In this document: piece after piece, positions 3,077 to 40,372 of the stretch
How positions within the stretch are numbered: position 1 is the first letter of the stretch
How the letters are laid out: every line of letters starts with the position of its first letter
Assembly (NCBI GenBank): GCA_046881825.1
Contig: JBKSMS010000010.1
Location: forward strand, 12,924-76,923
Length of the DNA stretch: 64,000 nt
Source: Alphaproteobacteria bacterium
Lineage (GTDB): Bacteria > Pseudomonadota > Alphaproteobacteria > Rs-D84
Reading direction: 5' to 3'
Program-made: the position numbers and the translations under genes
Notes under the pieces: generated by a model
What the model was told of the DNA's origin: nothing
The model's input: the letters and a program-made list of their open reading frames with translations, nothing else
The model's database searches: none

Positions 3077-3272
3077 ATGACTAATTTTGAAACATTGCGA
3101 CAGGAAATTCAATCTTGGTATCCAGATTACCAATTTACAGATGTTGAATTAAATGAAGCAACACAAGATTTAATTAAGTTTTTTGCAGAAGGAGCACTAG
3201 AAATATATAGGCAAAAAAAAGCAGAAAATAAAAATAAAGGTCTGCAAAATGAAAAAAACACGGTAGAATCAA

Positions 3273-3283
<11 letters not shown>
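3077..3283 (+). CDS. Hypothetical small protein immediately upstream of and overlapping the recombinase gene
   Basis: 68-aa ORF, translationally coupled to the recombinase. Confidence 0.3.
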
Positions 3284-4901
<1,618 letters not shown>

Positions 4902-9318: not shown

Positions 9319-10020
9319 ATGTTTAAAAAACTAAATATTATAGTATTTGCAGTTATGATAGCTTTGGGATTTCATATTTCTTCTGGTTGGTCCGAAGAAG
9401 TCTTCATGGACGATTATGTTGAATATGATAATTATTCAGATAATGTTGTTGGACAAAGTGATGCCGAATTAGCTGACCAAATGTCTGTTCAAGCATTACA
9501 AGAATATGATATGACAGGTTCTTTGTTTGAAAAAATCACAATGCTGGAACAAGAAAAAGTTGTTGCTCAACTGGAAAAAGAACGCGCACAATTGGATTTA
9601 GATTTTGACAGATTAAATGCTGAAAGAATTAAATTACAAATGGAATTAGATACTTTGTCTGGGCGTGCAGAACAACAACAACAAGAATTAGAAACTGCAA
9701 AAACTCAGTTGGAAATACAGACGGAAAAGTTAAGAAAACAACGAGAGGCTTTGGATGAAGAAATAGATTATGAATCAATAGTAAAAAAATCAACATCTAA
9801 AAAAGAAGAAGGTAGTTTCAACAGAAGATATAAATTGATAAATGTTGTCGGTGTTGATAATCAATTACAGGCTACTGTTCAAGAAGTATCTACTGGTCAA
9901 AACAAACGTATTGCTGTGGGTAAAGATTTGGATGGATATGTCGTGAAATCTATATCTTTAAATGATGGTATTATTTTTGAAAAAGATGGTGTCGAAGAAA
10001 GTTTAAATATTGGAAAATAA
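9319..10020 (+). CDS. GspM/PilP/BfpU-like membrane-anchored coiled-coil protein. The likely start is the ATG at 9319; the track gives a GTG at 9310.
   Basis: N-terminal TM segment then a long coiled coil. AAGGTGG RBS lies 5 nt upstream of the ATG. Assigned by position in the operon. Confidence 0.4.
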   Translation: MFKKLNIIVFAVMIALGFHISSGWSEEVFMDDYVEYDNYSDNVVGQSDAELADQMSVQALQEYDMTGSLFEKITMLEQEKVVAQLEKERAQLDLDFDRLNAERIKLQMELDTLSGRAEQQQQELETAKTQLEIQTEKLRKQREALDEEIDYESIVKKSTSKKEEGSFNRRYKLINVVGVDNQLQATVQEVSTGQNKRIAVGKDLDGYVVKSISLNDGIIFEKDGVEESLNIGK

Positions 10021-16506: not shown

Positions 16507-16995
16507 ATGATAAATAAAATTGAAGAATATAAGTTATTAAAATATATAAAAAAAAACTTGGATGAATATTCAAAGCTTGTTGATGATTTTGCAAAAAATC
16601 ATGCTTTGGATAAATTGCCGTTCATTGCTTACAAAAGTTGGGTTGATGTATTAAATGGTTATATTCGCATGATTGACGAAGACAAAAGACAAAAGATAGT
16701 TAAAGCTTTGGAAGTGCCAATATATGGTATAAAACAACGTTTTGCGGATGAAACCGTTCAAAAGGGCGCAATAAAAGAGATGCAACAGGTCATAAATTCT
16801 TATCTTAAAGATATGGAAAAAGAATTGGATATTAAACCAGAACAAATAAAAGAAGCTGGGGTTAAAAAGAAGACGAACACTCTTAAAGATGCAGTTGAAA
16901 AAGTTTTGGATAAATATGAAGAAGATAAAAAAACAGCAAAGCAAAACAAAGAAAAAAAACTGTTAAAGGATATTTTTGGAAATATTAATAATTAA
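16507..16995 (+). CDS. Hypothetical K/E-rich protein
   Basis: 162-aa ORF, tightly packed after gyrB. Confidence 0.45.
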   Translation: MINKIEEYKLLKYIKKNLDEYSKLVDDFAKNHALDKLPFIAYKSWVDVLNGYIRMIDEDKRQKIVKALEVPIYGIKQRFADETVQKGAIKEMQQVINSYLKDMEKELDIKPEQIKEAGVKKKTNTLKDAVEKVLDKYEEDKKTAKQNKEKKLLKDIFGNINN

Positions 16996-25777: not shown

Positions 25778-25852
25778 GGCAGCGTAGCTCAGTGGTAGAG
25801 CAGAGGAATCATAATCCTTTGGTCGGGGGTCCGAATCCCTCCGCTGCTACCA
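25778..25852 (+). tRNA. tRNA with a CAT anticodon. It is elongator Met or Ile2-lysidine type; the acceptor and anticodon-stem pattern resembles ileX-type tRNAs. CCA is encoded.
   Basis: GGCAGCGTAGCTCAGTGGTAGAGCAGAGGAATCATAATCCTTTGGTCGGGGGTCCGAATCCCTCCGCTGCTACCA gives a complete cloverleaf. Confidence 0.85.
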
Positions 25853-25861
25853 GAATAAACA

Positions 25862-25886
25862 AACGACCCGATGGGTCGTTTTTTTA
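25862..25886 (+). terminator. Rho-independent terminator after the tRNA
   Basis: acgaccc-gat-gggtcgt followed by TTTTTTT. Confidence 0.65.
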
Positions 25887-26021
25887 TTCTGTGCGTCGGG
25901 GTGGTGAAGGGCACCCAGATGGGGGTCCGACCCGCAGGCAAAAGGCAGACAGAAGTATGCCGGTCCCCCGAAGTTTTAACGAAGGGGGATTTGCCCAGGG
26001 GAATGAAGCGCAGCGGAATCA

Positions 26022-26039
26022 ATCCCTCCGCTGCTACCA
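26022..26039 (+). repeat. Direct partial copy no. 1 of the tRNA(CAT) 3' end (18/18 nt, atccctccgctgctacca). An att-type scar.
   Basis: Exact match to tRNA positions 59-76. It is preceded by a GC-rich spacer holding a degenerate T-arm copy (gggggtccgaccc). Confidence 0.7.
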
Positions 26040-26045
26040 AAATTC

Positions 26046-26073
26046 AAACCGCCCGTTTGGGCGGTTGTTTTTA
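26046..26073. terminator. Bidirectional terminator hairpin
   Basis: aaccgccc-gttt-gggcggtt followed by GTTTTTAT. The same stem recurs at 33126-33144. Confidence 0.55.
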
Positions 26074-26934
26074 TCGTTCTTCATTTATTTCAAATACACT
26101 CATTTCCATTCTTTCATTGAAAACGCATCTGGCCTTGTATTTTAATTCTAGATTAAAATCGTTCTTTGCCGAGAACCCAGATATCACTGTCAGACCATGT
26201 TGGTCTATGTGATGAGTGCTGCGTGAGATACTTCTTTTGAATGTTGATGGATTGGTTAGTGTTGATTTGGCTCTTTCATCGCAAAGGCTCATATAGTCAT
26301 ATATTTTATCTTCATATTTTTCTTGGACAGTTAGTGCTTTTGCGCCGCTATTGATTTCTTGTTCTGTTAAATAGAACTTGTGTTTGCCACATGCACCATA
26401 AATAACAACATTATCTTTACTGCCCATATCCTCAACCAATGATACAGATATCAGTTTGTCGCAGTTTTTATTTTTGCGAATTTGTTTTGCTGCTTTGGGT
26501 AATAATGCATTTATTTCTTTAATGCGTTCTACACCATATTTGTCTATGTATTCGTCATATCCCTCGCCACGTTCTGTTCCAATGATGTTTGGCCAAACGG
26601 CGGAATCATCATAGTTAATGCTGTCTTCCTTGGTCCTTGTTTCTTCTTTCTCTGTGTTTTCTGTGGGTTTAGTTTCATTTTCTTCGGCCACTACTTCGTT
26701 GGTCGTATCCGCCTGTTCTGGTTCAACGACAACCGCATATCCAATAAAACCAATTACAGCCAGAACTATCCTTAATGTTTTGTTTATGAAACCATAGTTT
26801 ATTGGTAGCAACATCAAAGCGAACAATAAACCAAAAAGATTAAAGTCAGCAAGTGAGCTTATCAGGAATATTCCACCTATTATCCATCTGATGATATCAA
26901 GAATTTTGTTCTTTGAGTTGTTTTCTTCTTTCAT
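26071..26934 (-). CDS. Hypothetical membrane-anchored protein (island cargo)
   Basis: 287 aa. Two N-terminal TM segments and an acidic low-complexity linker. Confidence 0.45.
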   Translation of the reverse strand: MKEENNSKNKILDIIRWIIGGIFLISSLADFNLFGLLFALMLLPINYGFINKTLRIVLAVIGFIGYAVVVEPEQADTTNEVVAEENETKPTENTEKEETRTKEDSINYDDSAVWPNIIGTERGEGYDEYIDKYGVERIKEINALLPKAAKQIRKNKNCDKLISVSLVEDMGSKDNVVIYGACGKHKFYLTEQEINSGAKALTVQEKYEDKIYDYMSLCDERAKSTLTNPSTFKRSISRSTHHIDQHGLTVISGFSAKNDFNLELKYKARCVFNERMEMSVFEINEER

Positions 26935-27233
26935 ATTGTTCCCTTTATTTTATGTGTTGTTCTGGTTAAGAGCAGAGTACACAAACAATTTGATTTTTTC
27001 CATATTTATTTTCTGAGATTATTTTATCTTGCTTTTCTAAATCAGATTTCTGTATAGTTTAATTCAAGGAAGGAAAGGATAACTGTCAGATGTGGTTATT
27101 TGTTCTGGCTTCTTTGGTTTTTTTGAGAAACAATGACAAAAATGGCGACCATCTGGCCGCCGTTTTTTTTGCATTATTTGCTAATATTCATAAATTATGG
27201 TATTATTGCGGTTAGAATGTATGAGGGATTATT

Positions 27234-27797
27234 ATGAAACGAAATCAAGTGATTTTATTCTATGGTCTGCCGGCAAGTGGTAAATATACGGTTGCAAAAG
27301 AAATTCAGAAAAAATGCGGCGGCGTTTTGTTGGATAACCATTATTTTTATGACTTGTTTGTAGGTATAACAGAAGTTCCAGATGAAATACGTCACGAATG
27401 GTTTCATCGTGTTGGAGATGTTCGCAGGGCTTATATGGATGTGTTAAGAAAGTTTTATCCACGAAAAAAGCAAACGCGATTTATATTTACATCTGTTTTA
27501 TTCCGCGGCGAAAAACTGCCTGCAAATCTACAAAAGTTTGCGCATGATATAAATGCTGATTTTATTCCCATAGAATTAAACGTGCGTAAAGATGTGTTGT
27601 TGAAACGGTGTAATACAGCACAGCGGAAAAAACGCGAAAAAATATCAGACCCGAAACAATATGAAAAGGTGCTGAATAAATGGTTACCAAACGCATTTCA
27701 TTCTAGACATGCCAATAGATTAGTTATAGATGTCAGTGATTTGTCATTGGATAAAACGGTGGCCGCGGTCAGGAAACATCTGCGACAATTTGATTAA
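27234..27797 (+). CDS. P-loop NTPase / small-molecule kinase-like protein (AAA_33 / chloramphenicol-phosphotransferase-like / zeta-toxin-like fold)
   Basis: Walker A FYGLPASGKYT near the N-terminus. 187 aa. Confidence 0.55.
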   Translation: MKRNQVILFYGLPASGKYTVAKEIQKKCGGVLLDNHYFYDLFVGITEVPDEIRHEWFHRVGDVRRAYMDVLRKFYPRKKQTRFIFTSVLFRGEKLPANLQKFAHDINADFIPIELNVRKDVLLKRCNTAQRKKREKISDPKQYEKVLNKWLPNAFHSRHANRLVIDVSDLSLDKTVAAVRKHLRQFD

Positions 27798-27809
27798 AAG
27801 GATACAGAC

Positions 27810-28577
27810 ATGCAAAAATGGGAAATCGCATTAAATAAGTTTTTGGAACGATATATTCATGAACCTTGGTTCGAGGGGGCGTTGTTGTGCGGTTCTTATA
27901 CCACAGGCAACCAGACCAAGTTTTCAGACATAGATGTTGTTATTGTTGGCAAGAATAATATGGGCTGGCAGGAAAAGTCCAATTGCTATGTTGATGGGTT
28001 CTTGATGGAATATACAATCAACCCTGTTTATAAACTGGAAGAATATATGGCAACATATATGAAAAACCATCGCCATATAGACCAGAATATGTTTGTGTAT
28101 GGAAAAATCTTGTATGATAAAAATGGGGTTATGAAAAAACTGCGCCAAAAATGTGTGCGCGATATTAAAAAGCCTTTCAAGCCATATTCAGAATACACAA
28201 AATCTTTTATCAAATACCATCTGTGGGACAAGTATGATGAACTGTTGTCGTTGGATGCGCGCGGATATCATATTGATATGCAATATTGGGCGGTGGTGGA
28301 TGCCTTGATATCTGCATACTATGATTTCAAGAATATGCCGCACCCACCACGCAGTAAAATTGAACCAATCTTGACCGACCCAGAATTTGCAAAGCGATAT
28401 CATATTCAGGCAATGCCGCCCAAGACATTTACAGATAAATTGTTGGCATGTATGAACGCAAAATCCAAGACCGCAAAAATGGACGCGGTAAAGGCATTTT
28501 ATAACTATGTCATGCGTGCTGGCGGTGGATTTGATATTGGCAAATTCCGCGGCTATCAAAAGATTGAAAAACGATAA
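27810..28577 (+). CDS. Nucleotidyltransferase-domain protein resembling aminoglycoside/lincosamide nucleotidyltransferases (ANT/KNTase-like)
   Basis: LLCGSYTTGNQTKFSDIDVVIV fits the G-S-x9-13-D-x-D/E pol-beta NTase signature, with a helical C-terminal domain. The 255-aa size is like KNTase. Confidence 0.6.
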   Translation: MQKWEIALNKFLERYIHEPWFEGALLCGSYTTGNQTKFSDIDVVIVGKNNMGWQEKSNCYVDGFLMEYTINPVYKLEEYMATYMKNHRHIDQNMFVYGKILYDKNGVMKKLRQKCVRDIKKPFKPYSEYTKSFIKYHLWDKYDELLSLDARGYHIDMQYWAVVDALISAYYDFKNMPHPPRSKIEPILTDPEFAKRYHIQAMPPKTFTDKLLACMNAKSKTAKMDAVKAFYNYVMRAGGGFDIGKFRGYQKIEKR

Positions 28578-28587
28578 GGAAACAAAA

Positions 28588-28968
28588 ATGAAACGCGCAA
28601 TTAAATTCAAATTGAAAAATGGTCGGGTTGTGACTATCCGTCTATTGCGTGCCGATGATTATGATGCGTTTGTAAAATTTAATAAAGAGTTTGCAAATGG
28701 ACCCAGCGCAAAAATGAATTTTGAATATCCTGGTGCGCCTGTTGAACCGAAAGAAAACTATGTAAAAGTGTGGTCGAACAAGAACTATTTATACATTGCG
28801 GCATTTGATGGCGAAAAAATAGTCGGCTATGCACAAATTCGCAAATTGATGACAGGTGTAAAATGGCCACGTGGTGGTATGCCAAATGCGGAATATTTTA
28901 AGTTAGAATATGATGGTGAAAAGTTCACCGTAATTGATACGCCGGATTGGTTGTCGCAGGTGGTGTAG
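28588..28968 (+). CDS. Small GNAT-like protein (N-terminal half of an acetyltransferase fold; possibly truncated)
   Basis: IRLLRADDYDAFVKF...LYIAAFDGEKIVGYAQI, without a clear acetyl-CoA P-loop. 127 aa. Confidence 0.35.
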   Translation: MKRAIKFKLKNGRVVTIRLLRADDYDAFVKFNKEFANGPSAKMNFEYPGAPVEPKENYVKVWSNKNYLYIAAFDGEKIVGYAQIRKLMTGVKWPRGGMPNAEYFKLEYDGEKFTVIDTPDWLSQVV

Positions 28969-28978
28969 CGGTCTTGGG

Positions 28979-30097
28979 TTATCTTTCCGGGGATGGCGAT
29001 TGTAATGCGTTGGATTTTTCAATTTCGTCCATCGTAACTGCAAATGCATCGGTGCCGTCTGCGCATTTAATATCAGGTTCAAACCCGTTTGTTTCAAAAT
29101 CTTTTATGCTTAGTTCACGATATACTGCGCCAACAGTGAACTTCATATGTGTATATGGTAATAAAATATATTGGTTGTATCCATATACTTCGCATCCGTT
29201 TGTGTTTGTGCCGACAATGGTTGTTTTGGGATAGTGTTTCATTCTGAAAATAAACATTTCTGCCGAAGAAGAAACGCCACGATTTGTTAATATATATACT
29301 GTATGTCTTGCGTTTTTGGGGTCGTATTTTTGTGTTGGTTTAATACTATTGTCGTGGATTATAAACGGGTCGTCTAGTGAGTCTGTGTCAAAATTGTTTC
29401 CAATTCGTTCTGGATAAAGTTTGTGTACATGCTTTGCATCGGGATTGTTACGAATGATTTCTTTGTTTGCATTTGGATATTTTTGTCCAAGTATATATTC
29501 AGCAATCTTGTCAGTGGGACGATTGTCGCCACCACCACTATCGCGAAGGTCGATGATAAGTGTTTTTGATTGTGACAGAATTGCGCGCCATTGTTTTTCA
29601 AATATTTTGCGTTCCGCGTCTGTCCATCCAGATAGTGTTGGTACTGCTATGATTCCAATATCACCACGTTGTTCGGTATGGAATTTTTTACCGCTTGCAA
29701 TATTTTTTCCGACATTTGGTCTTGGCTTGCGCAGTGCGGTGCGCGCACCCATGTTTTGCCCAACCATGTTCAGTTGTATATGGTTATCTGGTATAATCTC
29801 AATCGCAGGGCGCAGTTGTTCCAGAAATTCTGCCGATGTCATATCGTGTGCATTTTTATGAACATCAATCAATGTCTTCAGGATTTTGCGCTTTAGCACC
29901 TCATTATGAAATGGCCAACCACAATATACATTTATTAAAACTCGTGCAAAGACCGATACTTCATGTTTAACCTGTTCGGCGGTCAGTTTGGTATTTGGGG
30001 TCTTAGATTTTGTGTTCCCGGCTTCAACTAAATCTTCCGTTTCGGAATCTCGTAATAAAAATTCTTCCATTTCACTGATGGTTGGTATTTTGGTCAT
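28979..30097 (-). CDS. S41-family peptidase (C-terminal processing / tail-specific protease-like)
   Basis: LIIDLRDSGGGD and NRGVSSSAEMF (the S41 catalytic Ser region). 372 aa. Confidence 0.65.
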   Translation of the reverse strand: MTKIPTISEMEEFLLRDSETEDLVEAGNTKSKTPNTKLTAEQVKHEVSVFARVLINVYCGWPFHNEVLKRKILKTLIDVHKNAHDMTSAEFLEQLRPAIEIIPDNHIQLNMVGQNMGARTALRKPRPNVGKNIASGKKFHTEQRGDIGIIAVPTLSGWTDAERKIFEKQWRAILSQSKTLIIDLRDSGGGDNRPTDKIAEYILGQKYPNANKEIIRNNPDAKHVHKLYPERIGNNFDTDSLDDPFIIHDNSIKPTQKYDPKNARHTVYILTNRGVSSSAEMFIFRMKHYPKTTIVGTNTNGCEVYGYNQYILLPYTHMKFTVGAVYRELSIKDFETNGFEPDIKCADGTDAFAVTMDEIEKSNALQSPSPER

Positions 30098-30130
30098 ACA
30101 GTCACCATAACTTATTTATTTTACTGAGTA

Positions 30131-30354
30131 TTATTTTAACACAATTTTGGGGTTTTTGCCAGTTGTATATGGATGATTTAAGATGGGTAAAAACTTTACA
30201 TAGAAAAATGCTTAAAAAAGGCGGAAATGTGGGTGGTGTAGCGATTTTTGTTAAAGTGATTTTTGGATTTAATCTGATTAACGCTTATGGACAATTTTAC
30301 ATATACTAGACATAGAAAATTGGTGTGCCGGTGAAAGTGGCGGATTTCTGCGGG
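30131..30354. repeat. Island repeat copy R1 (about 225 bp), immediately 5' of the S41 peptidase start. Followed by tRNA fragment no. 2.
   Basis: Near-identical to 39916-40139. It shares the core ...aaaaactttacatagaaaaatg...gattaacgcttatggacaattttacatatac...gacatagaaaattggtgtgccggtgaaagtggcggatttctgcgg with R2 and R3. Confidence 0.85.
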
Positions 30355-30387
30355 GTGCGTGAGGGAAAATACTTTGTGCGCTGGTAT

Positions 30388-30414
30388 ATCATAATCCTTT
30401 GGTCAGGGGTTCGA
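30388..30414 (+). repeat. Partial tRNA(CAT) copy no. 2 (anticodon loop to T-arm, 25/27 nt, diverged)
   Basis: atcataatcctttggtcaggggttcga versus tRNA atcataatcctttggtcgggggtccga. Confidence 0.6.
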
Positions 30415-30512
30415 CAAAAAAGCAGGTTTTGCAACTTTGTTTTGTTGTTCAAGCGATAATTTAACTCAATTATCTGGGCTTATTGCGGATTTTAAATTTT
30501 TGTTATTTTCTA

Positions 30513-30896
30513 TTACTTTTTTTCAACTAAGCCTCTGTCACTCCATCTTGAAAATAATTTTTTTATTTCTAACACATCGTCATTAGATCTGCTCAATTTT
30601 TGTGCCGATGTAAAATCACCGAAATCCATAAGTTCCATATGCAGCTTGCCGCCGGAATCTCGATAAATTGCAAAATTATGCCATATATCATTATGTATAA
30701 GTCCGTTGTTATTCATATTTTGTATTTCACTTAATATTGTATTTTGTTCTTCGATAGTAATTGGTTTGTTTCTCAAACACTCAAGTATTTCTGCATCCTT
30801 CCTAAGCTCATCAACACTATCTACATGCGTGGCTTCCATAATAAAATATTGTGTATCTGGTGTTCTTGGCAATGTTATTTCAGGATGAGCATCCAT
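30513..30896 (-). pseudogene. Fragment of a protein-kinase-like (APH/Kdo-kinase type) gene, likely a pseudogene
   Basis: GLIHNDIWHNFAI...MELMDFGD (catalytic loop and DFG) in only 127 aa. Frame decay appears downstream. Confidence 0.4.
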
Positions 30897-31061
30897 AAAT
30901 GCTTTCAGTACTGTTTGATCGTCCCATCAGCAGAAACAGATGTTTTCTATTTTTTCAACTTTCGAACTAGGTGAAAGTGTTGTCTTACAAAAGAAAACGT
31001 GCACTTAAGGGCAAGTTTTGAAACTGTGATTATGGTCGGCCAGTATAACGCAAACCTTTTA

Positions 31062-31631
31062 TTATGAATTGTAAAGCAGTTGTTTTATCCAAGAAATCAA
31101 ATTAAATCTTTGTTTTTCTTGTTTTATATATTTGGGTGGAATAATGCCTTTTCTAAGCACAATCATATAATGTCGTACTGCGCCATATAGCAATTCATTT
31201 TTTATATCAACCTTTTCCCATGTTAAAGGCGATGTATCAATTTCATTTGGCTTAACTTTATAAAAATAGTTGTCGCACCCTTTGTGTATATGCAGTTTTC
31301 GACCTTTTTTTGCCAAATCGTCCCGACACCATATTGATTCTACAAGGCCGTTTTTGATTAAGTCGTCCAGTTCAAAAGAAAACAAGATAGAACTTTTTAC
31401 CATTTTTTTCAGAATTGGGTCATTTCCACGCCATTTCACCGGTTCGGTTAAACAAGAAATGCTTCTGCTGCGCCCAGGAAATGTTTTGTCCATCCATGCA
31501 ATAACATCTTTGCGTTTGTTTGATTTTACGTATGATGAATATCGTTTTAGGTCTGTTGGATGCTTTGCGTATGAAAATAAACCATTGGTCAATATAGTGT
31601 TATTCTTTGGGGCATAGTGATACAGTTTCAT
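31062..31631 (-). CDS. Hypothetical protein (island cargo)
   Basis: 189-aa ORF. Confidence 0.4.
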   Translation of the reverse strand: MKLYHYAPKNNTILTNGLFSYAKHPTDLKRYSSYVKSNKRKDVIAWMDKTFPGRSRSISCLTEPVKWRGNDPILKKMVKSSILFSFELDDLIKNGLVESIWCRDDLAKKGRKLHIHKGCDNYFYKVKPNEIDTSPLTWEKVDIKNELLYGAVRHYMIVLRKGIIPPKYIKQEKQRFNLISWIKQLLYNS

Positions 31632-31672
31632 TTTGATTCCTTATAGTAAATATAATAGCAAATTGTGACGAA

Positions 31673-31850
31673 TTTTTACCAGTTAAAAACTTTACATAGA
31701 AAAATGGTTAAAAAATGGCAGAAATGTGAGTGGTGTAGCTGTTTTTAGGTAAGTGCTTTTTGTATTTAATCTGATTAACGCTTATGGACAATTTTACATA
31801 TACCAGACATAGAAAATTGGTGTGCTGTGGGAAGTGGCGGATTTCTGCGG
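31673..31850. repeat. Island repeat copy R2, immediately 5' of the 189-aa gene. Followed by tRNA fragment no. 3.
   Basis: Matches the R1/R4 core but lacks the 25-nt ttgtatatggatgatttaagatgggt segment. Confidence 0.8.
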
Positions 31851-31883
31851 AGTTCGTGTGGAAAAATATTTATGCGCTGAAAT

Positions 31884-31928
31884 ATCATAATCCTTTGGTC
31901 GGGGGTCCGAATCCCTCCGCTGCTACCA
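31884..31928 (+). repeat. Partial tRNA(CAT) copy no. 3 (anticodon loop to CCA, 45/45 nt identical)
   Basis: atcataatcctttggtcgggggtccgaatccctccgctgctacca is identical to tRNA positions 32-76. A terminator hairpin follows at 31936-31965. Confidence 0.85.
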
Positions 31929-32071
31929 AAAATTCAACCCCGATTTATTCGGGGTTTAATTTTTGATATAGTCGCGAGTGGATGAGGACCCCGGGTCCGA
32001 CAACAAGTAGATTTTGGAAGTGAAACGCACCAAAATCGTTACGGTTGCCCCGCAGACACGAAGTGTTGAGG

Positions 32072-32091
32072 GAATCCCTCCGCCGCTACCA
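32072..32091 (+). repeat. Partial tRNA(CAT) 3'-end copy no. 4 (19/20 nt), followed by a hairpin terminator
   Basis: gaatccctccgccgctacca; cccgg-tgtt-ccggg + T6 at 32098-32118. Confidence 0.7.
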
Positions 32092-32456
32092 GAATTTCCC
32101 GGTGTTCCGGGATTTTTTATTTAACAAAAATTTCCCGATTTCGCCCGAATTTATCAGTTTTAGCAGATATATTTACATGCGTAATCCTTTTGCTTGCTTT
32201 ACACTATGAATTATAAAGGGGAATACACAGAAAGTCGCGGCAAAAGGCTGCGAACGATGACAAAGGTTTACAAAGGGGTATGACTCTTTACAAAAGTGAT
32301 ATAAATGTATTTAAAAGTTTTTCATATGAACAATAAAATAGTACTTGATTTTTTGTATCCATTTGGATACAATACGGATGTATAATAAACCAAAAAGGAT
32401 TAAGATGAAAAGAAGGGGCGTAGAGGCTGGACGTTATCAGTCGGGAGAAAAACAAA

Positions 32457-32750
32457 ATGGTAATCATAGAAACAATAGAATACAGTAAATGGTTTGATAA
32501 ATTAAAAGACGGAAAAGCAAAGGCAAAGATAGGTGTTCGGGTTCGGCGCATCGCGGCACAGGATCACTTTGGTGATTTTAAACCGGTTGGTGATGGGATT
32601 TGTGAATTGCGTATAGATTACGGTCCTGGATATAGAATTTATTATACACAGCGTGGTGAAGAGATTGTCTTGCTGTTGATCGGGGGCGATAAGTCAACGC
32701 AGCAATCAGATATAAAAAAGGCTAAACAAATTTTGGCAAACTACCAGTAG
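32457..32750 (+). CDS. Type II toxin-antitoxin toxin, RelE/HigB-like ('addiction module killer', COG3657-type)
   Basis: 97 aa, IEYSKWFDKL...GDGICELRIDYGPGYRIYY pattern. It comes first of a pair with an HTH antidote gene. Confidence 0.7.
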   Translation: MVIIETIEYSKWFDKLKDGKAKAKIGVRVRRIAAQDHFGDFKPVGDGICELRIDYGPGYRIYYTQRGEEIVLLLIGGDKSTQQSDIKKAKQILANYQ

Positions 32751-32804
32751 CAATAAATACTACTGCGTTAGCAAAACAAAAAATATTACTCAAAGGAGTA
32801 AGGA

Positions 32805-33122
32805 ATGAAAAACGTAAAAAAGGCGACAGAATGGAATATTCTTGATCACCTTAAAACAGAAGAAGATATCGCTAACTATCTAGAGGCTGCATTAGAAGAA
32901 AATGATATAGAATTTTTCTTAATTGCTCTTGGTGATGTTGCAAAAGCACGTAGCATAAATAAGATAGCAAAAGAAATAGGGGTAGGACGCGAATCTTTGT
33001 ATAAAAGTTTCTCTGGCGCACGTCGTCCAAATGTAGAAACTGTTTTTAAAGCAATAGATGCGTTAGGTTTAAAAGTTAATTTTACACCTAAAAGTACATA
33101 TAATCAAAGTGTAGCAGCATAA
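32805..33122 (+). CDS. HigA-family antitoxin (XRE-type HTH 'addiction module antidote')
   Basis: 105 aa, LGDVAKARSINKIAKEIGVGRESLYKSFSG HTH. It lies immediately downstream of the toxin and is followed by a terminator at 33126-33150. Confidence 0.7.
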   Translation: MKNVKKATEWNILDHLKTEEDIANYLEAALEENDIEFFLIALGDVAKARSINKIAKEIGVGRESLYKSFSGARRPNVETVFKAIDALGLKVNFTPKSTYNQSVAA

Positions 33123-33207
33123 TATACCGCCCGTTTTGGGCGGTTTTTTGTATATTGTGTTTATGATTAAATTCTGATACTATTATACCTGTATAAAGAG
33201 GTGTATT

Positions 33208-33990
33208 ATGAAGATTCCCGCAAAGTTTATAAAAAGAGCAAATGAACAATTAAAAAAGTATCAGGTTATTGTTAGAAAATTAAAAAGACAAGAAGTTAAT
33301 GAGACGGATACAGTTAAAGTTATTAACGATATTTTTGCGGATCTTTTTGGATATGATAAATATACCGAAATAACTAGTGAATATGCAATTCGTGGAACCT
33401 TTTGTGATTTGGCAATAAAGCAACAAAGTGGTAAGATTTACATGTTAGTAGAAGCAAAAGGGGTGTCTATTCCTTTAAAAGAAAATCATATTAAACAGGC
33501 TACAGATTACGGTGTTAATCATGGAACAAAGTGGGTTGTATTAACAAATTCTGTAGATTGGAAGGTTTATAAAATTAAATACAGTCAACCAATAGAACGA
33601 GAATTGGTTTTTGAATTCAATTTATTAGACATGGATTTAAAAAAAGAAAAACAACTTGAGGTTGTTTTTGCTCTTAGTAAAGAAGGTCAGGATCTTTCTG
33701 TAATAGATGAGATTTATTCAAATAATCAAGTGAAAAATAAGTATGTCCTTGCGGGGTTGATAGATAGTCCTGAGATATATAAGCTTATAAAAAAACAAAT
33801 AAAGCTGTATTTTGAAAATAGTATCAAAATAACAGATGAAGAGATTTCTAATTTTATAAAGTTTGATATATTTAAGCGAGAGGTTTGGGATAGTGATGAG
33901 GCGAAAGAATATCAAAAGGTTTTGAAAAAGATGATTAAAAAAGCGGAAAAAAAGAAACAGTTATCTGTTGCAAAACAAGATGTGCAATAA
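33208..33990 (+). CDS. PD-(D/E)xK nuclease-fold protein (HsdR-N-terminal-domain-like) with a K-rich tail
   Basis: CDLAIKQQSGKIYMLVEAKG fits D...(hydrophobic)E.K. 260 aa. Confidence 0.45.
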   Translation: MKIPAKFIKRANEQLKKYQVIVRKLKRQEVNETDTVKVINDIFADLFGYDKYTEITSEYAIRGTFCDLAIKQQSGKIYMLVEAKGVSIPLKENHIKQATDYGVNHGTKWVVLTNSVDWKVYKIKYSQPIERELVFEFNLLDMDLKKEKQLEVVFALSKEGQDLSVIDEIYSNNQVKNKYVLAGLIDSPEIYKLIKKQIKLYFENSIKITDEEISNFIKFDIFKREVWDSDEAKEYQKVLKKMIKKAEKKKQLSVAKQDVQ

Positions 33991-34028
33991 AATAATATAA
34001 AAATAAATGAGCGCCATACGGCGCTCAT

Positions 34029-37000
34029 TTATTTACTCTCTTGTTCTATAAACTTTTTTAATTTAATAACTTCCCTATCTTTTGATCTAAACCAACTTGT
34101 TGACCATATTCTATAGAATTTATATCCATAGCTTTCTAGAATTTTTTGACGCTGCATATCTTCTGCAAACGCTTCTTCAGAGCCATGATATGCTTTCCCG
34201 TCACATTCCAGAGCTATATCCTTGCCGCCAACTTTCAACAAAAAGTCAAGTCTATATCCCCCAACTTTGTATTGAGGCTTAATAGCATCTTGTGGCAGTA
34301 TTTTTAATAACTCTTCATACACTTCTTCTTCAAATGGCGATTCTGTTAATCCTTCAGCGGAACTATTTGTATCACGTCTAGGTGTTTCATAAGAGTATTC
34401 TTTTATCGTTTTTAAAACAGTATCTACTGTTGCAAGATCGCCAAGTGCATGTGCTTTCACATAGGCTAAGTAAGCATAAAATACAGCTATGCGGTTGTTT
34501 TCCTGCTTTTCTTCTAATCTGGATTTATAGTCAGCAAATTTCATCTCTGGAATTGAGGTCACTAAAAACAGTTGCTGTTTTGCTCGTGTTATAAGTACAT
34601 TAAGCAGCCTATATCCTTCATCCCTATTTATAACAAACTGTTCTTTAAACTTACCGTCATGAGCAGGTCCGTATGTTGTGGAAATAATGATAATATCTCT
34701 TTCGTCACCTTGGATATTTTCTAGATTCTTTACAAACAAAGGATCTTTATGTTGTTCCAGTTCTGCATATATCTTGGCGAATTCTGTATCTTCTGCTGCA
34801 ACCTCATGTAACATCAATTTAATTAAATTGCGTTGCTGCACATTAAATGTTGCAATACCAACAGATGGCAGTTTCCCAGGATACATGGTAGGCAATGCTT
34901 TTATTATCTCAATAACTTTATATGCCTCCTTTTCATTCATTCTATCTGCATACACACCATCAACATGGTAATATGTAAATGGGGTATTTGTAGCAATGCG
35001 TGCAGGCAATGGACACAAATTACAGCCATAAAAAGCGCAATTTGAAAACTCAATCAATGCAGGATGCTTACTTCTGTAATGGAAATCTAAATAAGAAGCA
35101 AATTCTTTGACATTTTTAAAGCCCTCTGCGTATTCAAGTAAAGATTCTGAGTCAAGTGGCGCTAAATCAAAACCGTCGCCATCACCATCGTTCCCATCAA
35201 CGTTCCCTCCATCCATATTTTTTGCAAACCAGTTAGACGGAGGCATCTGATGTTTATCTCCTGCTATGATTTTATATTGTCCACGTATCATTGAGGTGTA
35301 AACATCTTCTATTCTTAACTGACTGGCCTCATCAAATATTACCAGATTAAACAGCCCCTGTTTTAATGGAAGCAAGGCATTCGCAACAATTGGGTTAACC
35401 ATTATTACGGGGAATAAATCAGTAAATGCGTCAAACTCTTTGTCAATAATTTGTCTCAAAGACAGTTTCTTAGCGTATTTTCCTCTTTTTAATGCAAACA
35501 ATGTTTTGAAACCATATTTACTATCCAGGGTCGCAATTGCATTTTCTCGTTCATAATACCAGGTTTTAAAGATTTTTTTCGTATTATTCTTTTGTAGTTT
35601 TATAAACAACTCTCTCAATGAGGCCAATTCTGGCTCTTTTGCAGATGTTAAAAACTGTTTCTTTGTCTTTTTGGCATGATTTAACAAGAAGTAATAATAA
35701 TAAACAGCTTGGAATAAATCTTCCCAATAAGAATCATCTTGCTCAAGCAAAAGAGAATCAAACAATACTACATCTCTTTTATACTCTTGTAGCCATGAAA
35801 CATATATTTCTAACTCATCAAGTTTATCTAACAACGAAACTAGCTTTGTCTTAATTTTTTCCGCACACTCTTTGGCACCTTGGGTTGTTCTATAATCAAA
35901 ATCCTTTGCTACAACACCATTAAAACTATTAGCAACAGTATCCTTTACCTCTTCGTAAATCTGTTGGCCTGCCACTATAGAGTTTAATATATTGTGCAGA
36001 TTATCTACTTCAGATACACGTTCTTTAAGCTTATTTTGTATATCTTCTAGTTCTAATGCCAGATTTTTCTGTCGTGCATGCAAATCCGCGCTTATATCAT
36101 TTACATTGCTTTCAATATCAGCTAAATGAGATCTGATATGTTCATAAATTAGATTTTGAGTATTTTTGGTTTGAATAGAAACGTTTTCTGCTTCTTTCTT
36201 GATCGATAGCAGGGCAGCACTTTCACAGTCATTATACGAACAAAAATCTCCATATTTTGTTGTATACTCATCTATTTTTCTTAACAACTGCTTGTAATTC
36301 TTACGTACTTTTTTTGCATATTTATGACTTTCTGAAAGCTTTTTAGAGAAAAGCCTTGTTACAATATTTGAATTATAAGCATTAAAATCTTCCCCAAGTA
36401 TTTCAATTCCTTCTGCAAAAGCCTCTTGAATATCTTCTACATCATCCAAAATAGAATAGAGTCTTCTAAGCTTATCCTTAGCATTTTCATCTAACTGCAT
36501 ACTTTCGCATTTGCAATTAAATCTTCTGGCAACAGTAAGTATATCTTCACATAACGCTCCTGCGCTTTTAATCCAATCAGCCAGATTATCTTTACTTTCT
36601 GTTATTATATTGTGTTTATTTTGCAATTCGCTTAATTTTACCTGACATTCGCGCATAGCATTATCAAAATGTTGTACACTTTGAATTTTTCCTTTATCTA
36701 CAATTTGTAGCAAATCAATATCCTTGCCACAAGACTTTGAAACGATAGATAGTTGATTGTTTATTTCGGCAATCATATCAACAAATTCTTGTTTTTTACC
36801 TACACTCAATAATTTTGAAGCGTTTGTGGAGTTTGCCTTTATTTCATTACAAATCCCCAAGGACTTGGATAGTTTATCAGTCTTGGTATACATGGATGTT
36901 GTGCCAATATCTAAGATTGTATTATCAATAAAGTTGATAAGCTTATTGATATGCTTTACGGCAACATCTATATTCTTTTCAATCAAAATTTTTCCACTAA

Positions 37001-38606
37001 CAGATAAATCGATTTCTTTATCCAAATTAAACAAGTCAAACGAGGTTATATCTATATGCTTGCAGGCGGAATGTGTTTCTGCCCCACGTTTGACCAAATT
37101 ACAATAATTTACAAATTCTGCAGAATTAAATTCCCAACCTGTGGCTACATGCTCCAGATTATCTCTAATTGATGCAAAGGCATCACGTTTGGATTTCTTT
37201 AAGAACAAACCAATCAAATCAGACCATGTTTTTTGTTCAAAAATAGGTTCGCTAGAAGCTTTGTATGAAGCGTTAATAGAATCTCTTAATCTATTAAAAT
37301 TTTCTTGATCTCTTTCAAACTCCACTTCATTAAATGCTTTGGTCGGATTGTATTGCTGTAAAGCACGTGCTTTGTCGACCACAGCTCTGCGGTCTTTGTT
37401 AACATCATCAACAACTATACAAAAAGTGTCTAAACCCTTTTCCGACAAATTGTGTTTCAAGACGTCTAATGCAGTTTTCTTCTCACAGACAACCAATGTC
37501 TTGGCACCATTTGCCAGTGCGTTAGAAATGATCGCTGAGATTGCCTGACTCTTACCTGTCCCCGGAGGCCCTTGAATAATCTTAAACTCATTGTCATTTA
37601 GAGTTCTTATTATTTCTTCTTGACTAGGATCTGTATCAAAGGAAGCCTCAGATGAAGTAGAAAAACGCTCTAATTCCATATCTTCCGCATTAAACTGATC
37701 TATATTTTTTTGTAATTCTAAAACGGATTCTATAATGGTTTCTTTTTGTGAACGAAAAAGCCCAAAGACCCCAGACCACTGAACAAAACCATTACCAGAG
37801 CATAATTTTTCCAAATGCTCTTTTGTGCCAACAGGTTCCAATTTCAGAGACAGATCGTCAAATTTTATATTCAATTTCTTCAATATATCCTTCAGATACT
37901 TTTGTATTTCATTTTCTTGAAGTACCCCATCGTCAATATCTTCTATATCCAGGCGTTCCAATTGAAGTTTTTCTGAATTTTCAATGTACGACATTAAAAT
38001 TTCATTCATTTTGATTGGACTATCTTCGTTTTTTGAAATAATCCACTCATTTTTACGGTTAGACTTTCTGATATCCAGCGACCACAAGAACAAAGGAGCT
38101 ACGATAGTCTTTTTTTCATCTTTCTTGTCTGGCAATACCAGCAATGGATACCCAAAGGCAAAATTTTTCAGTCCGGTATCAATAAAAGAATCTTCGTTAT
38201 CTATAGCCATAGAATCTAGGCGCTTTCCAACGATAACAAGCCTGTCTTTTATTTCTGCATCCATACGGGTTAATTTCTTGTCTTCCCAAGAAAATCGGAA
38301 ATCAAATTTATCTTTAGTCAATAGAGTTTCTAAAAACTTCTTTGCATATGTATCTTTTTTTGTTTTTGATGTGTCAGAAAACAAATTTAAATCTGGTTCT
38401 ACGTTGGCTATAGATAAGTCGCATAAATCTAATCTGTTTTTTAGTCGACCAGGCACAGCCATCAAATGTATTGGCGTACGTCCAACCAAGCCTGTTAATT
38501 TCTTATAAATGCCTTCCAAAAACTTTTTATCAAATTTTATTTGTGACTTCATGATAAACTCCGACACTATTTCTTTAATTATACAATATATATTCCTAAT
38601 AATCAA
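34029..38606 (-). CDS. Giant (1525 aa) Upf1-like SF1 helicase with an N-terminal DUF4011-like region and a C-terminal DUF559/Vsr-like endonuclease domain. Defense-island type.
   Basis: Walker A GPPGTGKS, DEASQ (motif II), GDKHQMPP (motif III), ITRAK (motif VI), and a C-terminal GGYRLDF...ECDG.AYHG..E....D..R...L...G restriction-endonuclease-like patch. Confidence 0.85.
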   Translation of the reverse strand: MIIRNIYCIIKEIVSEFIMKSQIKFDKKFLEGIYKKLTGLVGRTPIHLMAVPGRLKNRLDLCDLSIANVEPDLNLFSDTSKTKKDTYAKKFLETLLTKDKFDFRFSWEDKKLTRMDAEIKDRLVIVGKRLDSMAIDNEDSFIDTGLKNFAFGYPLLVLPDKKDEKKTIVAPLFLWSLDIRKSNRKNEWIISKNEDSPIKMNEILMSYIENSEKLQLERLDIEDIDDGVLQENEIQKYLKDILKKLNIKFDDLSLKLEPVGTKEHLEKLCSGNGFVQWSGVFGLFRSQKETIIESVLELQKNIDQFNAEDMELERFSTSSEASFDTDPSQEEIIRTLNDNEFKIIQGPPGTGKSQAISAIISNALANGAKTLVVCEKKTALDVLKHNLSEKGLDTFCIVVDDVNKDRRAVVDKARALQQYNPTKAFNEVEFERDQENFNRLRDSINASYKASSEPIFEQKTWSDLIGLFLKKSKRDAFASIRDNLEHVATGWEFNSAEFVNYCNLVKRGAETHSACKHIDITSFDLFNLDKEIDLSVSGKILIEKNIDVAVKHINKLINFIDNTILDIGTTSMYTKTDKLSKSLGICNEIKANSTNASKLLSVGKKQEFVDMIAEINNQLSIVSKSCGKDIDLLQIVDKGKIQSVQHFDNAMRECQVKLSELQNKHNIITESKDNLADWIKSAGALCEDILTVARRFNCKCESMQLDENAKDKLRRLYSILDDVEDIQEAFAEGIEILGEDFNAYNSNIVTRLFSKKLSESHKYAKKVRKNYKQLLRKIDEYTTKYGDFCSYNDCESAALLSIKKEAENVSIQTKNTQNLIYEHIRSHLADIESNVNDISADLHARQKNLALELEDIQNKLKERVSEVDNLHNILNSIVAGQQIYEEVKDTVANSFNGVVAKDFDYRTTQGAKECAEKIKTKLVSLLDKLDELEIYVSWLQEYKRDVVLFDSLLLEQDDSYWEDLFQAVYYYYFLLNHAKKTKKQFLTSAKEPELASLRELFIKLQKNNTKKIFKTWYYERENAIATLDSKYGFKTLFALKRGKYAKKLSLRQIIDKEFDAFTDLFPVIMVNPIVANALLPLKQGLFNLVIFDEASQLRIEDVYTSMIRGQYKIIAGDKHQMPPSNWFAKNMDGGNVDGNDGDGDGFDLAPLDSESLLEYAEGFKNVKEFASYLDFHYRSKHPALIEFSNCAFYGCNLCPLPARIATNTPFTYYHVDGVYADRMNEKEAYKVIEIIKALPTMYPGKLPSVGIATFNVQQRNLIKLMLHEVAAEDTEFAKIYAELEQHKDPLFVKNLENIQGDERDIIIISTTYGPAHDGKFKEQFVINRDEGYRLLNVLITRAKQQLFLVTSIPEMKFADYKSRLEEKQENNRIAVFYAYLAYVKAHALGDLATVDTVLKTIKEYSYETPRRDTNSSAEGLTESPFEEEVYEELLKILPQDAIKPQYKVGGYRLDFLLKVGGKDIALECDGKAYHGSEEAFAEDMQRQKILESYGYKFYRIWSTSWFRSKDREVIKLKKFIEQESK

Positions 38607-38649
38607 TTATTCCAGGCTAGGTTAATGAAACTGTATATATTTGTATTTG

Positions 38650-38795
38650 GTATGATTAAGTAGGGGTAAAAACTTTACATAGAAAAATGGTTAAAAAATG
38701 GCGGAAATGTGAGTGGTGTAGCGGTTTTTAGGTAAGTGCTTTTTGTATTTAATCTGATTAACGCTTATGGACAATTTTACATATACTGGACATAA
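38650..38795. repeat. Island repeat copy R3 (truncated), immediately 5' of the giant helicase start
   Basis: Shares ...gggtaaaaactttacatagaaaaatggttaaaaaatggcggaaatgtgagtggtgtagcggtttttaggtaagtgctttttgtatttaatctgattaacgcttatggacaattttacatatactggacata with R2. Confidence 0.8.
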
Positions 38796-38808
38796 TGTTG
38801 GACATGTT

Positions 38809-39888
38809 TTAATAGTCGAATGCCTGTTGTGCTTGTGCCCTTTTTAACTCGTCCATACTGAACGGTCTTTGTTGAACTTGTTTGCCAAGTTCTTCTGTTG
38901 CTGAACGCAATGATTCTGTTCTACGTTCACGTTCTATTCCGCGTTTCTCTTCTATTATTTCTTGCAATTCTTCGGGAGGCAGTTCTTGTTCTTCTGGGGT
39001 TAGGTCGGATAATATTTTTAATTCACGTTCTATTTGTTTGTGCACGCCAGGTGACCAGTATTTTTCGTTTGCTACCTGTGCCAAGAATTTTTTTGCATCT
39101 TCAAGTGAAACGCGACTGGCTTTTTCCAGAAATACTTCGTGGTCAGTAAAAGGTTTGTCCAGTTTCGCCCTAATCATATATGGTTCGCCATTTCTGAACG
39201 TCATCAAATGTTTGAACGATTTGCCAACTTGGAAATCGTCTTTGGAAATTCTTTTTGTAAACTCACCTTTGGGAAAGGTGGGGTTTCTTGGTTCTATTAT
39301 AATCCAATCACCATTATTTAGTTTTACACAAGGAACTGTGTGCCCTGAACGGCCGTTCAGCAAATGGTCCCAGACGGTTGTGAACATAAACTTGACGTAT
39401 TGTTTTCGTTCTGAATGTTCTTTTGTAAATTCATCTATAAACGCAACAGCACCATTTGAACAAGATGTTGTGAAGCCATATTTCATAAATATACCTGGTG
39501 TGGCATTTAATTTATTGCGTTTATCGTCATAGTTTTTGAGGTTTTTTTTCAGTTCTTTTTTGGAAAGTTTTGGTATTACTTTTACGATTTCTTTTATTTC
39601 ATCCCCGATTGTTTTTTTAAATTCTGATGGGGTTTTAGCGTGGCTTTTTTCGTTTCTTTGAATTTTTTTGAATAAAACACACCAAATAAATACATCAAGG
39701 TGTTCGAGTGGTTCGTGTTCTGTTTTGCCAGTTTTGTTTAATATATGCTGGTTCGCGGCTGCGATTAACGTAGGCTCTGTTTTTAATGCATCGGTGATAA
39801 GATTTTTTAAACTGCTCAATCCTGTTTTTTTGTCTCTTAACTTGTTTATAGTTTCGTTTATTGCGGATAATCTTTCTTCGTCTGTCAT
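38809..39888 (-). CDS. Hypothetical protein (island cargo)
   Basis: 359-aa ORF with no motif recognised. Confidence 0.45.
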   Translation of the reverse strand: MTDEERLSAINETINKLRDKKTGLSSLKNLITDALKTEPTLIAAANQHILNKTGKTEHEPLEHLDVFIWCVLFKKIQRNEKSHAKTPSEFKKTIGDEIKEIVKVIPKLSKKELKKNLKNYDDKRNKLNATPGIFMKYGFTTSCSNGAVAFIDEFTKEHSERKQYVKFMFTTVWDHLLNGRSGHTVPCVKLNNGDWIIIEPRNPTFPKGEFTKRISKDDFQVGKSFKHLMTFRNGEPYMIRAKLDKPFTDHEVFLEKASRVSLEDAKKFLAQVANEKYWSPGVHKQIERELKILSDLTPEEQELPPEELQEIIEEKRGIERERRTESLRSATEELGKQVQQRPFSMDELKRAQAQQAFDY

Positions 39889-39915
39889 GGTTGCTCCTGA
39901 TGATTTATTTTATTG

Positions 39916-40139
39916 ATATTTTAACACAATTTTGGGATTTTTGCCAGTTGTATATGGATGATTTAAGATGGGTAAAAACTTTACATAGAAAAATGGGGCA
40001 AAAATGGCGGAAATGTGAGTGGTGTAGCGATTTTTGTTTTAGTGAATTTTGTATTTAATATGATTAACGCTTATGGACAATTTTACATATACTGGACATA
40101 GAAAATTGGTGTGCCGGTGAAAGTGGCGGATTTATCCCG
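39916..40139. repeat. Island repeat copy R4, immediately 5' of the 359-aa gene. This is the right end of the island, and no tRNA fragment follows.
   Basis: Near-identical to R1 over about 220 bp. Confidence 0.85.
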
Positions 40140-40372
40140 GTTTTTCGTTCAAGAATTTCTTGACTTTTTGATGTTTGCAGGGCAAAATATCTGCCGTGTG
40201 ACATGCTGATGCGACTGACAACCGCGGAGTGTTATATAAATCTAAAAAGTAAAAAAAGCAGGGTGGCACCGCGCGAAAAAATCTTAGCGCCCCTGTGTTT
40301 TAAGATTTGAATTGGTGCCGCATCCAATAGATTTTTACGGCACCGAAGCAAAAACAAAAAAGGTGTAGTAAA

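Follow-up and report, generated by a model that had tools for sequence, protein, structure and literature searches.

A small mobile tRNA-Met island in an alphaproteobacterial genome with a putative Hhe/ProA-type helicase-nuclease, a stand-alone nuclease and a toxin-antitoxin pair

The 64,000-nt stretch of DNA analysed here (the window: positions 12,924 to 76,923 of contig JBKSMS010000010.1, from the Alphaproteobacteria bacterium assembly GCA_046881825.1) contains, at positions 32167-38793, a block that encodes a toxin-antitoxin (TA) pair, a stand-alone nuclease with an HSDR_N_2 domain, and a giant protein in which a superfamily 1 (SF1) helicase is fused to a C-terminal nuclease. The four open reading frames (ORFs) lie where a preliminary description of the sequence had placed them, with the giant gene convergent with the 260-aa nuclease gene and 38 bp away from it. 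We consider it probable, though well short of certain, that the block is a mobile tRNA-Met island with three self-contained conflict modules, in which the 1507-aa helicase-nuclease is a single-gene defence system of the Hhe/ProA/PDC-S37 type. The data presented below directly establish the domain content of these proteins, their intact catalytic motifs, the mobility of the island, the absence of a conserved partner for the helicase-nuclease, and the recurrence of defence genes and mobile elements beside its relatives.

The island is genuine and neatly delimited but fairly ordinary, and it confirms expectations rather than overturning any. It nevertheless provides a compact example of defence cargo that moves between species (the core genes of the two genomes compared are only 77% identical) with no integrase found on the island. 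In addition, it delimits a shorter clade within the Hhe/ProA superfamily, characterised by a large coiled-coil insert and by an N-terminal domain for which solved PDB structures gave no match, and this clade could help explain how single-polypeptide helicase-nucleases sense infection.

The giant helicase-nuclease and its relation to Hhe and ProA

The motor of the giant protein is clearly recognizable (residue numbers follow the 1507-aa product, and all of its features lie on the minus strand). Pfam models AAA_12 (62.2 bits) and AAA_11 (39.5 bits, Walker A part only) match it, and the Upf1-like motif set read in the preliminary description is present in full: GPPGTGKS (Walker A, motif I; residues 328-335, positions 37548-37571), DEASQ (Walker B; residues 1074-1078, 35319-35333), GDKHQMPP (motif III; residues 1098-1105, 35238-35261) and ITRAK (residues 1321-1325), the last within a RecA2/AAA_12 domain at residues 1146-1332 (34557-35117) that also contains QGDERD. 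Residues 1407-1502 (34047-34334) form a C-terminal Vsr-fold restriction endonuclease domain of the MTES_1575 family (84.9 bits, cut-off 38.2), which was defined in PMC3710099; its catalytic patch reads D1436...E1449-C-D1451-G-K1453..H1456, with the motif ECDGKAYHG at residues 1449-1457. The patch had been attributed to a Vsr/DUF559-type nuclease. It is indeed there, but DUF559 itself is matched at threshold only (20.8 bits, cut-off 20.6) and the strong match is to MTES_1575. Much the same applies to the proposed DUF4011-like fusion, in which the SF1 helicase is clear and DUF4011 is detected at threshold only (22.4 bits, cut-off 22.2). The Walker A motif is invariant in 41 homologues, Walker B and motif III fall in invariant columns of the homologue alignment, and the helicase motifs together with the nuclease patch (D1436, E1449, D1451, K1453 and H1456) are invariant or nearly so across 23-41 homologues of 33-83% identity, which indicates that the giant protein is under selection as an active enzyme.

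When the sequence is compared with solved structures, Upf1-like SF1B helicases alone resemble the giant protein (IGHMBP2 at 2.6e-07, Sen1 and Upf1), and we found no solved structure for a close relative of either this protein or the HSDR_N_2 protein. In an AlphaFold model of residues 310-1507 (pLDDT 80.6, pTM 0.40), RecA1 starts at Walker A, is broken by an insert and resumes at Walker B, and is followed by RecA2, a helical linker and a small alpha/beta nuclease. The insert, of about 610 aa (residues ~410-1020, 35493-37325), splits RecA1 between motifs I and II; DSSP assigns helix throughout it in the model, with long coiled-coil helices, one of which spans ~96 residues. Foldseek pairs the motor with IGHMBP2, Dna2, Upf1, Sen1 and SETX at a probability of 1.0 and detects a weak similarity between the insert and the coiled coils of Smc5/6, MukB and Rad50. 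Between motif III and RecA2 the protein has a low-confidence, Gly/Asp-rich acidic loop (NMDGGNVDGNDGDGDGFD). It falls in a patch (34801-35400, residues ~1050-1250) where identity to the copy of the island on metagenome contig L004, described below, drops to 83-96% inside a gene otherwise 99-100% identical; the patch may reflect a recombination tract or a surface that evolves fast.

The N-terminal 300 residues (37653-38552) are modelled as a separate alpha/beta domain that, from its weak profile matches, appears to be a divergent DUF4011-like domain. An AlphaFold2 model of the first 335 residues (pLDDT 76, pTM 0.69) has no PDB fold match at E<0.1. A phmmer search with residues 1-300 against 1.84 billion representatives returned 270 clusters; in those listed matches that are full-length (~1,150-1,650 aa) the domain is N-terminal or nearly so, and the other matches are shorter fragments. 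The PF13195 (DUF4011) match covers the C-terminal half of the profile only, and homologues give similarly marginal matches at the same place (19.8-26 bits), with a true Hhe scoring 128.6 bits. Aligned by hhalign, the N-domain profile matches the N-domains of DUF4011-type relatives with a probability of 82% and an E value of 1e-5 over 115 columns, while the family profile gave no significant match to the N terminus of a single Hhe sequence. The kinship of this domain to DUF4011 is probably real, if remote, and a sensor or regulatory role is possible for it.

Among defence profiles, the best scores come from PDC-S37 and ProA, both of which cover the helicase and nuclease parts of the protein. 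PADLOC PDC-S37 (PDLC05009) matches at 6e-137 (456.5 bits, best stretch at profile positions 497-1341 of 1550) and NCBIfam ProA (NF058533) at 1.5e-135 (453.6 bits, profile positions 485-1705 of 1903), the N-terminal ~480 positions of the ProA profile being left unmatched. The PADLOC Hhe profile follows at 3.9e-80, and NCBIfam Hhe (NF042953) reaches 332.5 bits in three stretches, the best of which covers residues 1031-1353. Since the curated equivalog cut-offs stand at 2000 bits for Hhe and 1500 bits for ProA, more than three times the ProA score obtained, the giant protein is neither Hhe nor ProA proper but a member of a separate clade of the Hhe/ProA superfamily.

Comparison with a bona fide Hhe (HheA; 1893 aa, from a Klebsiella plasmid) shows where the two proteins agree. 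Hhe has the same order of domains, with a DUF4011-type N-domain (its counterpart in the window protein being a probable, divergent one), an SF1 Upf1-like AAA_11/AAA_12 helicase and a C-terminal MTES_1575 nuclease, and it also has a long helical insert after Walker A; it is carried on mobile DNA (Klebsiella plasmids, between insertion sequence elements), as the window protein is on an island. However, Hhe is the longer protein (1893 aa against 1507 aa), and its DUF4011 domain scores 129 bits against 22 bits here. The C-terminal ~770 residues (735-1497) align at 25% identity and the surroundings of Walker A at 33%; over the N-terminal ~300 residues the pairwise comparison gave no match. The Upf1-like SF1B helicases (IGHMBP2, Upf1, Sen1/SETX and Dna2) have the same motor core by sequence and fold, with motifs I, II, III and VI, but they are eukaryotic RNA/DNA-processing enzymes, whereas the window gene is island cargo with its RecA1 domain split by the ~610-aa coiled-coil insert. 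Dna2 likewise joins a nuclease to an Upf1-like motor; its nuclease, however, is of the PD-(D/E)xK type and N-terminal, and the one in the window protein is Vsr-fold and C-terminal.

Several other assignments were considered and set aside. Profile hidden Markov model (HMM) searches detected DUF4011 (marginally), AAA_11/AAA_12 and DUF559/MTES_1575 but no relaxase family, which disposes of a conjugative relaxase-helicase (TraA/TraI), the alternative raised in the preliminary description; for RecD2, TIGR01448 gave 25.1 bits (cut-off 500). Profiles of Mokosh (MkoA/MkoC) yielded partial matches of 82-83 bits to the RecA2 region only, and there is no PLD domain, while DpdJ, MADS mad8 and type IV DinG matched only part of the P-loop or RecA2 regions.

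The view that this architecture has no demonstrated function, also expressed in the preliminary description, is out of date, because Hhe, which shares it, is an established anti-phage gene. It is accepted as a single-gene system combining helicase and nuclease, and a review table lists hhe among the Gao 2020 systems. Candidate triggers of Hhe, according to a PhageMaP preprint, are Bas63 g40 and several T7 genes of class II (DNA metabolism).

By analogy, the giant protein very probably works in the same general way as Hhe, and homology would extend to it an anti-phage activity with a corresponding substrate and trigger. SF1B motors translocate 5'->3', and the motor of the window protein would load on single-stranded or branched nucleic acid from phage or plasmid replication and move along it 5'->3' with ATP. 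The N-domain and the coiled coil would gate this activity, and the C-terminal nuclease would then cut the DNA and halt the invader, perhaps with some cost to the host cell. This proposal draws on Hhe and on general knowledge of SF1B motors and Vsr-fold nucleases.

The gene for this protein most probably occupies 34029-38552 on the minus strand (1507 aa plus stop), starting at ATG 38552. The preliminary description had counted 1525 aa, and an ORF of that length does exist (34029-38606, opened mechanically at TTG 38606), but the shorter product is likelier and TTG 38606 is probably not the start. Three observations favour the ATG: the GenBank product MFQ6695735.1 ('MAG: Alphaproteobacteria bacterium'), encoded on the same contig as the AspRS and HSDR_N proteins of the window, is 1507 aa long; a GGAG is placed 7 nt upstream; and a sigma-70-like promoter candidate, TTGATT-17-TATAAT, lies upstream on the same strand (38578-38606). 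The promoter is a consensus match only (10/12), and since a scan of the region found no excess of such sites over shuffles, it is to be taken as a candidate.

Mobility of the island and its other modules

The limits of the island emerge from comparison with L004, where the block at 32167-38793, comprising the TA pair, the HSDR_N_2 nuclease, the helicase-nuclease and part of a repeat that we call R3, recurs with 96.5% nucleotide identity across 6637 nt. The core genes gyrB, aspS and uvrB, by comparison, are only 77-78% identical between the window and L004. On L004 the block is directly bounded by a tRNA-Met (16518-16621) and by a 47-nt copy of the tRNA 3' end (9655-9701) that is 100% identical. 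L004 has the same R repeat and att-like copies as the window: a ~250-nt R repeat adjoins the 47-nt tRNA-Met copy, and the full repeat runs on into the tRNA-Met fragment. A left end of ~150 nt is also common to both, with window 32167-32316 matching L004 at 16401-16252 and at 9540-9391. The excess identity over the core genes and the tRNA-Met direct repeats show that the block is a small (~6.6 kb) horizontally moving island, with a tRNA-Met gene's 3' end as its probable target, which bears out the preliminary view of it as tRNA-island cargo.

In the window the block is placed in an array of small cassettes (25778-40156) downstream of a tRNA-Met gene (25778-25852). The array contains four partial copies of the tRNA-Met 3' end (26021-26050, 30364-30414, 31860-31939 and 32073-32102) and four R copies of ~150-250 nt (30132-30370, 31684-31945, 38667-38794 and 39917-40156), each of which lies upstream of a minus-strand cargo gene, these being, in turn, an S41 peptidase gene, a 189-aa ORF, the helicase-nuclease gene and a 359-aa ORF. 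As had been described, two of the repeat copies flank the block: R2 (31684-31945) on its left and R3 (38667-38794) at the 5' end of the giant gene, R3, truncated at 38794, matches R2 at 96.9% identity over its 128 nt. The homology with L004 starts at 32167; some 50 nt before that point, the plus strand has a partial tRNA-Met 3'-end copy followed by a terminator-like hairpin (32073-32118; hairpin 32097-32112). The 30-nt tRNA-Met copy at 32073-32102 agrees with the reference copy (26021-26050) at 73% identity, and window 32072-32118 is 95.7% identical to L004 9676-9630. An Rfam scan of the repeats and intergenic regions returned two tRNAs and no other known RNA.

Of the features looked for in a tRNA-integrated island, the tRNA with a direct repeat (in L004) and the excess identity are present, and no integrase of its own was found. 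A scan of 10 ORFs between 24049 and 39888 detected no recombinase domain, and the only recombinase that tblastn found in the window is a serine recombinase at 3273-4901. In appearance, the array is a set of related cassettes that would be mobilised in trans.

The TA pair opens the block. A RelE/ParE-fold toxin of the HI1419 family (HigB-like, 97 aa; 32457-32750, plus strand) precedes a helix-turn-helix (HTH) antitoxin of the HI1420 family (HigA-like, 105 aa; 32805-33122, plus strand), with a gap of 54 nt. The HigB/HigA-like assignment made earlier is secure, as both proteins lie far over the curated NCBIfam cut-offs: the toxin scores 127.6 bits with TIGR02683 (cut-off 62.85) and matches Pfam Gp49 at 1.3e-08, and the antitoxin scores 101.6 bits with TIGR02684 (cut-off 53.7) and matches PF21716 at 1.3e-26 as well as HTH_3. 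The pair is an ordinary member of the HI1419/HI1420 group (TIGR02683/TIGR02684; COG3657/COG3636), in the same toxin-first order and with no notable difference. RelE-fold toxins of such a family cleave mRNA and are neutralised by the HTH antitoxin. On the island the pair would most likely serve to stabilise the element, and it may add an abortive-infection capacity.

The second module (33208-33990, plus strand) is a 260-aa HSDR_N_2 nuclease of the PD-(D/E)xK type with a C-terminal helical extension. The earlier reading of a stand-alone HsdR-N-like protein is supported by a PF13588 score of 40.1 bits (cut-off 25; 4.4e-10) and by intact catalytic residues, E58, D67, E82 and K84 (E...D...ExK) being conserved in 100% of 120 homologues. 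The protein shares its PF13588 domain and these residues with the stand-alone HSDR_N_2/Mrr-like nucleases, and its homologues include hundreds of stand-alone 250-290-aa proteins annotated 'predicted type IV restriction endonuclease'. It matches no PADLOC model and no solved structure.

Two hairpins divide the block into three transcription units rather than one operon. An intrinsic-terminator-like hairpin at 33126-33144 (plus strand; 8-bp stem with 6 GC pairs, then TTTTTT) would close the TA unit, and a perfect 15-bp hairpin at 34001-34034, detected on both strands where the nuclease and helicase-nuclease genes converge, could terminate transcription from either side. The identity profile against L004 is also mosaic, at 99-100% over 33001-38600 (apart from the patch at 34801-35400) and 76-88% over 32201-33000; at the protein level the toxin is 74%, the antitoxin 93% and the HSDR_N_2 protein 99.6% identical. 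The TA module therefore has a history separate from that of the two nuclease genes, which suggests that it was exchanged inside an otherwise recently shared island.

Relatives, partners and alternative explanations

Full-length relatives of the helicase-nuclease (1,300-1,540 aa) are found in Alphaproteobacteria metagenome-assembled genomes (MAGs), many Bacteroidota, Patescibacteria and one Asgard archaeon MAG, with a few on IMG/VR contigs and one weak match only in phage genomes. The relative at 82% identity sits in an island with HipBA and a tyrosine integrase, the one at 63% beside Mrr, two EcoRI-type methylases, GmrSD-HNH, HicAB and DUF3800, the one at 59% in an integrase/AAA_25 element, and those at 44-45% in serine-recombinase elements; other near relatives have GmrSD, HNH, AAA_14/DUF4143, BstA_C and integrases as neighbours. 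When 147 ORFs beside 23 family loci were scanned with Pfam and PADLOC, no recurrent partner emerged, only scattered Wadjet (JetC/D), type I/II/IV restriction-modification, GmrSD, MADS and bSEFIR genes, three serine recombinases and housekeeping genes. The check for conserved neighbourhoods proposed in the preliminary description was thus carried out over ~200 related loci, and it yielded varied defence genes and recombinases but no conserved partner. The gene acts as a solo module, and its neighbourhood is frequently, though not invariably, one of defence genes or mobile elements. Among relatives of 44% identity, two separate contigs (L084 12321-13656 and L206 3647-4096) have a DUF2924 gene immediately upstream of the helicase-nuclease, and in L084 an NTF2_3 gene comes immediately downstream of it; these may be lineage-specific accessory genes.

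Several points weigh against a single-gene defence system of the Hhe/ProA type. Its scores fall far below the Hhe and ProA cut-offs, so that the transfer of function spans a large distance, and a literature search found no publication behind the names ProA or PDC-S37. Housekeeping genes account for many of the Bacteroidota neighbours, which makes the defence-island signal patchy and not uniform. Finally, the HSDR_N_2 and helicase-nuclease genes travel together at >99% identity and recur in convergent orientation in L084, which weakens the case for their full independence.

This last point is at the centre of an explanation that we regard as unlikely, namely that the HSDR_N_2 protein and the helicase-nuclease form a two-gene system with the TA pair as an unrelated passenger; in one such arrangement, the small PD-(D/E)xK protein could sense DNA that is foreign or modified and then bring in or license the large motor-nuclease. 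The two genes converge on one common hairpin, are both 99-100% identical between the window and L004 next to a TA segment at 76-88%, and have adjacent GenBank accession numbers in three MAGs. Moreover, L084 contains an independent second convergent pair, in which the helicase-nuclease is 44% and the HSDR_N_2 protein 57% identical, within a prophage-like serine-recombinase element. However, the NTF2-like (NTF2_3) gene separates the pair in L084, and a convergent orientation means that the genes are not co-transcribed. The closest HSDR_N_2 homologue outside the island (69%) stands beside hsdM/hsdS with no such helicase. When an HMM built from 120 HSDR_N_2 homologues was run against all ORFs of 203 loci, it matched in L004, L084 and L087 only; L004 is the same island, and L087 had been fetched via HSDR_N_2 itself rather than through the helicase. 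In ~195 other loci, among them the relatives at 82%, 63% and 59% identity, there was no copy within +/-10 kb (contigs permitting), nor was there one in four more near-clade contexts. An obligate partnership with HSDR_N_2 can be rejected, given that among the helicase-derived loci only L004 and L084 scored. L084 is one independent recurrence, and a lineage-specific partnership stays a minority hypothesis, not a conserved system.

A little less likely again is that the giant protein has no role in immunity, serving instead the DNA metabolism of the element or the host (repair, replication restart, or excision and replication) or acting as a weapon between elements. Its structural neighbours Dna2, Upf1, IGHMBP2 and Sen1 are DNA/RNA-processing enzymes, relatives occur inside integrative elements beside recombinases and replication-type genes (AAA_25, DUF2924 and FtsK), and several Bacteroidota homologues have housekeeping neighbours; in P. 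aeruginosa, a DUF4011 gene belongs to the conserved core and flanks a defence hotspot, rather than being variable cargo. On the other hand, the window gene moves horizontally, as the contrast between 96.5% identity for the island and 77% for the core indicates, and the family has a scattered distribution among phyla (Bacteroidota, Patescibacteria, Alphaproteobacteria and archaea). Anti-phage models give the best profile matches to the window protein, sequenced phage genomes hardly contain it (the one weak match apart), and no integrase or replication gene that it might assist was detected in the scanned surroundings of the island.

As for the block as a whole, the preliminary description had presented it as one anti-phage or anti-mobile-element module. 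The cargo is indeed of a defence type, but its parts look independent, with no conserved partner for the helicase-nuclease and a TA pair that diverges separately. It is very improbable that all three modules make up one integrated system in which the TA pair controls or backs up the helicase-nuclease. The modules do adjoin one another on one island in both the window and L004, and an abstract (PMC13064477) offers a precedent, reporting a type II TA system that modulates the helicase-nuclease defence Hachiman. Yet a toxin that is 74% identical between island copies that otherwise agree at ~99.5% implies that modules were exchanged separately, and the TA pair has its own terminator-like hairpin. 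No HI1419/HI1420 homologues were found by tblastn near any other family member, and other relatives lie beside different TA types (HipBA and HicAB), as expected of a generic addiction module. Most likely, we infer, the three modules are independent rather than one system.

A bolder proposal would treat the clade of ~1,150-1,650-aa proteins as a distinct single-gene immune sensor-effector, with its own N-domain and an SMC-like coiled coil in the SF1B motor, that works here with the convergent HSDR_N_2 protein as a two-nuclease system; in this combined form, we give it only a small chance of being right.

Other elements in the window

The serine recombinase noted above lies beside a second tRNA-Met (4821-4897). 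The segment that contains it (2942-4875) is 92% identical to positions 12318-14250 of L086, from another Alphaproteobacteria MAG, and 94.5% identical at the protein level. In L086 this segment directly follows a paralogous helicase-nuclease, P0009, that is 45% identical to the window protein; in the window, the cargo upstream of the recombinase consists instead of two 381-aa ORFs (386-1531 and 1543-2688). As the cargo beside the matching recombinase segment differs between L086 and the window, related elements appear to swap helicase-nuclease genes as cargo.

In a cassette at 27234-28968 within the tRNA-Met array, a nucleotidyltransferase gene (27810-28577; Polbeta/NTP_transf_2) is accompanied by a gene for a P-loop kinase-like protein (weak matches to AAA_18/AAA_33) and by an overlapping ORF of 153 aa; the cassette may represent an MNT-type toxin-antitoxin or other defence-like pair. 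Outside the array, a 1250-aa ORF at 20000-23752 has a local GC content of 0.45-0.46, compared with ~0.35, and contains 33-nt tandem repeats (22742-22906) that encode units of the Asn-Thr-Pro-Gly-Gly type, which suggests a secreted or surface protein.

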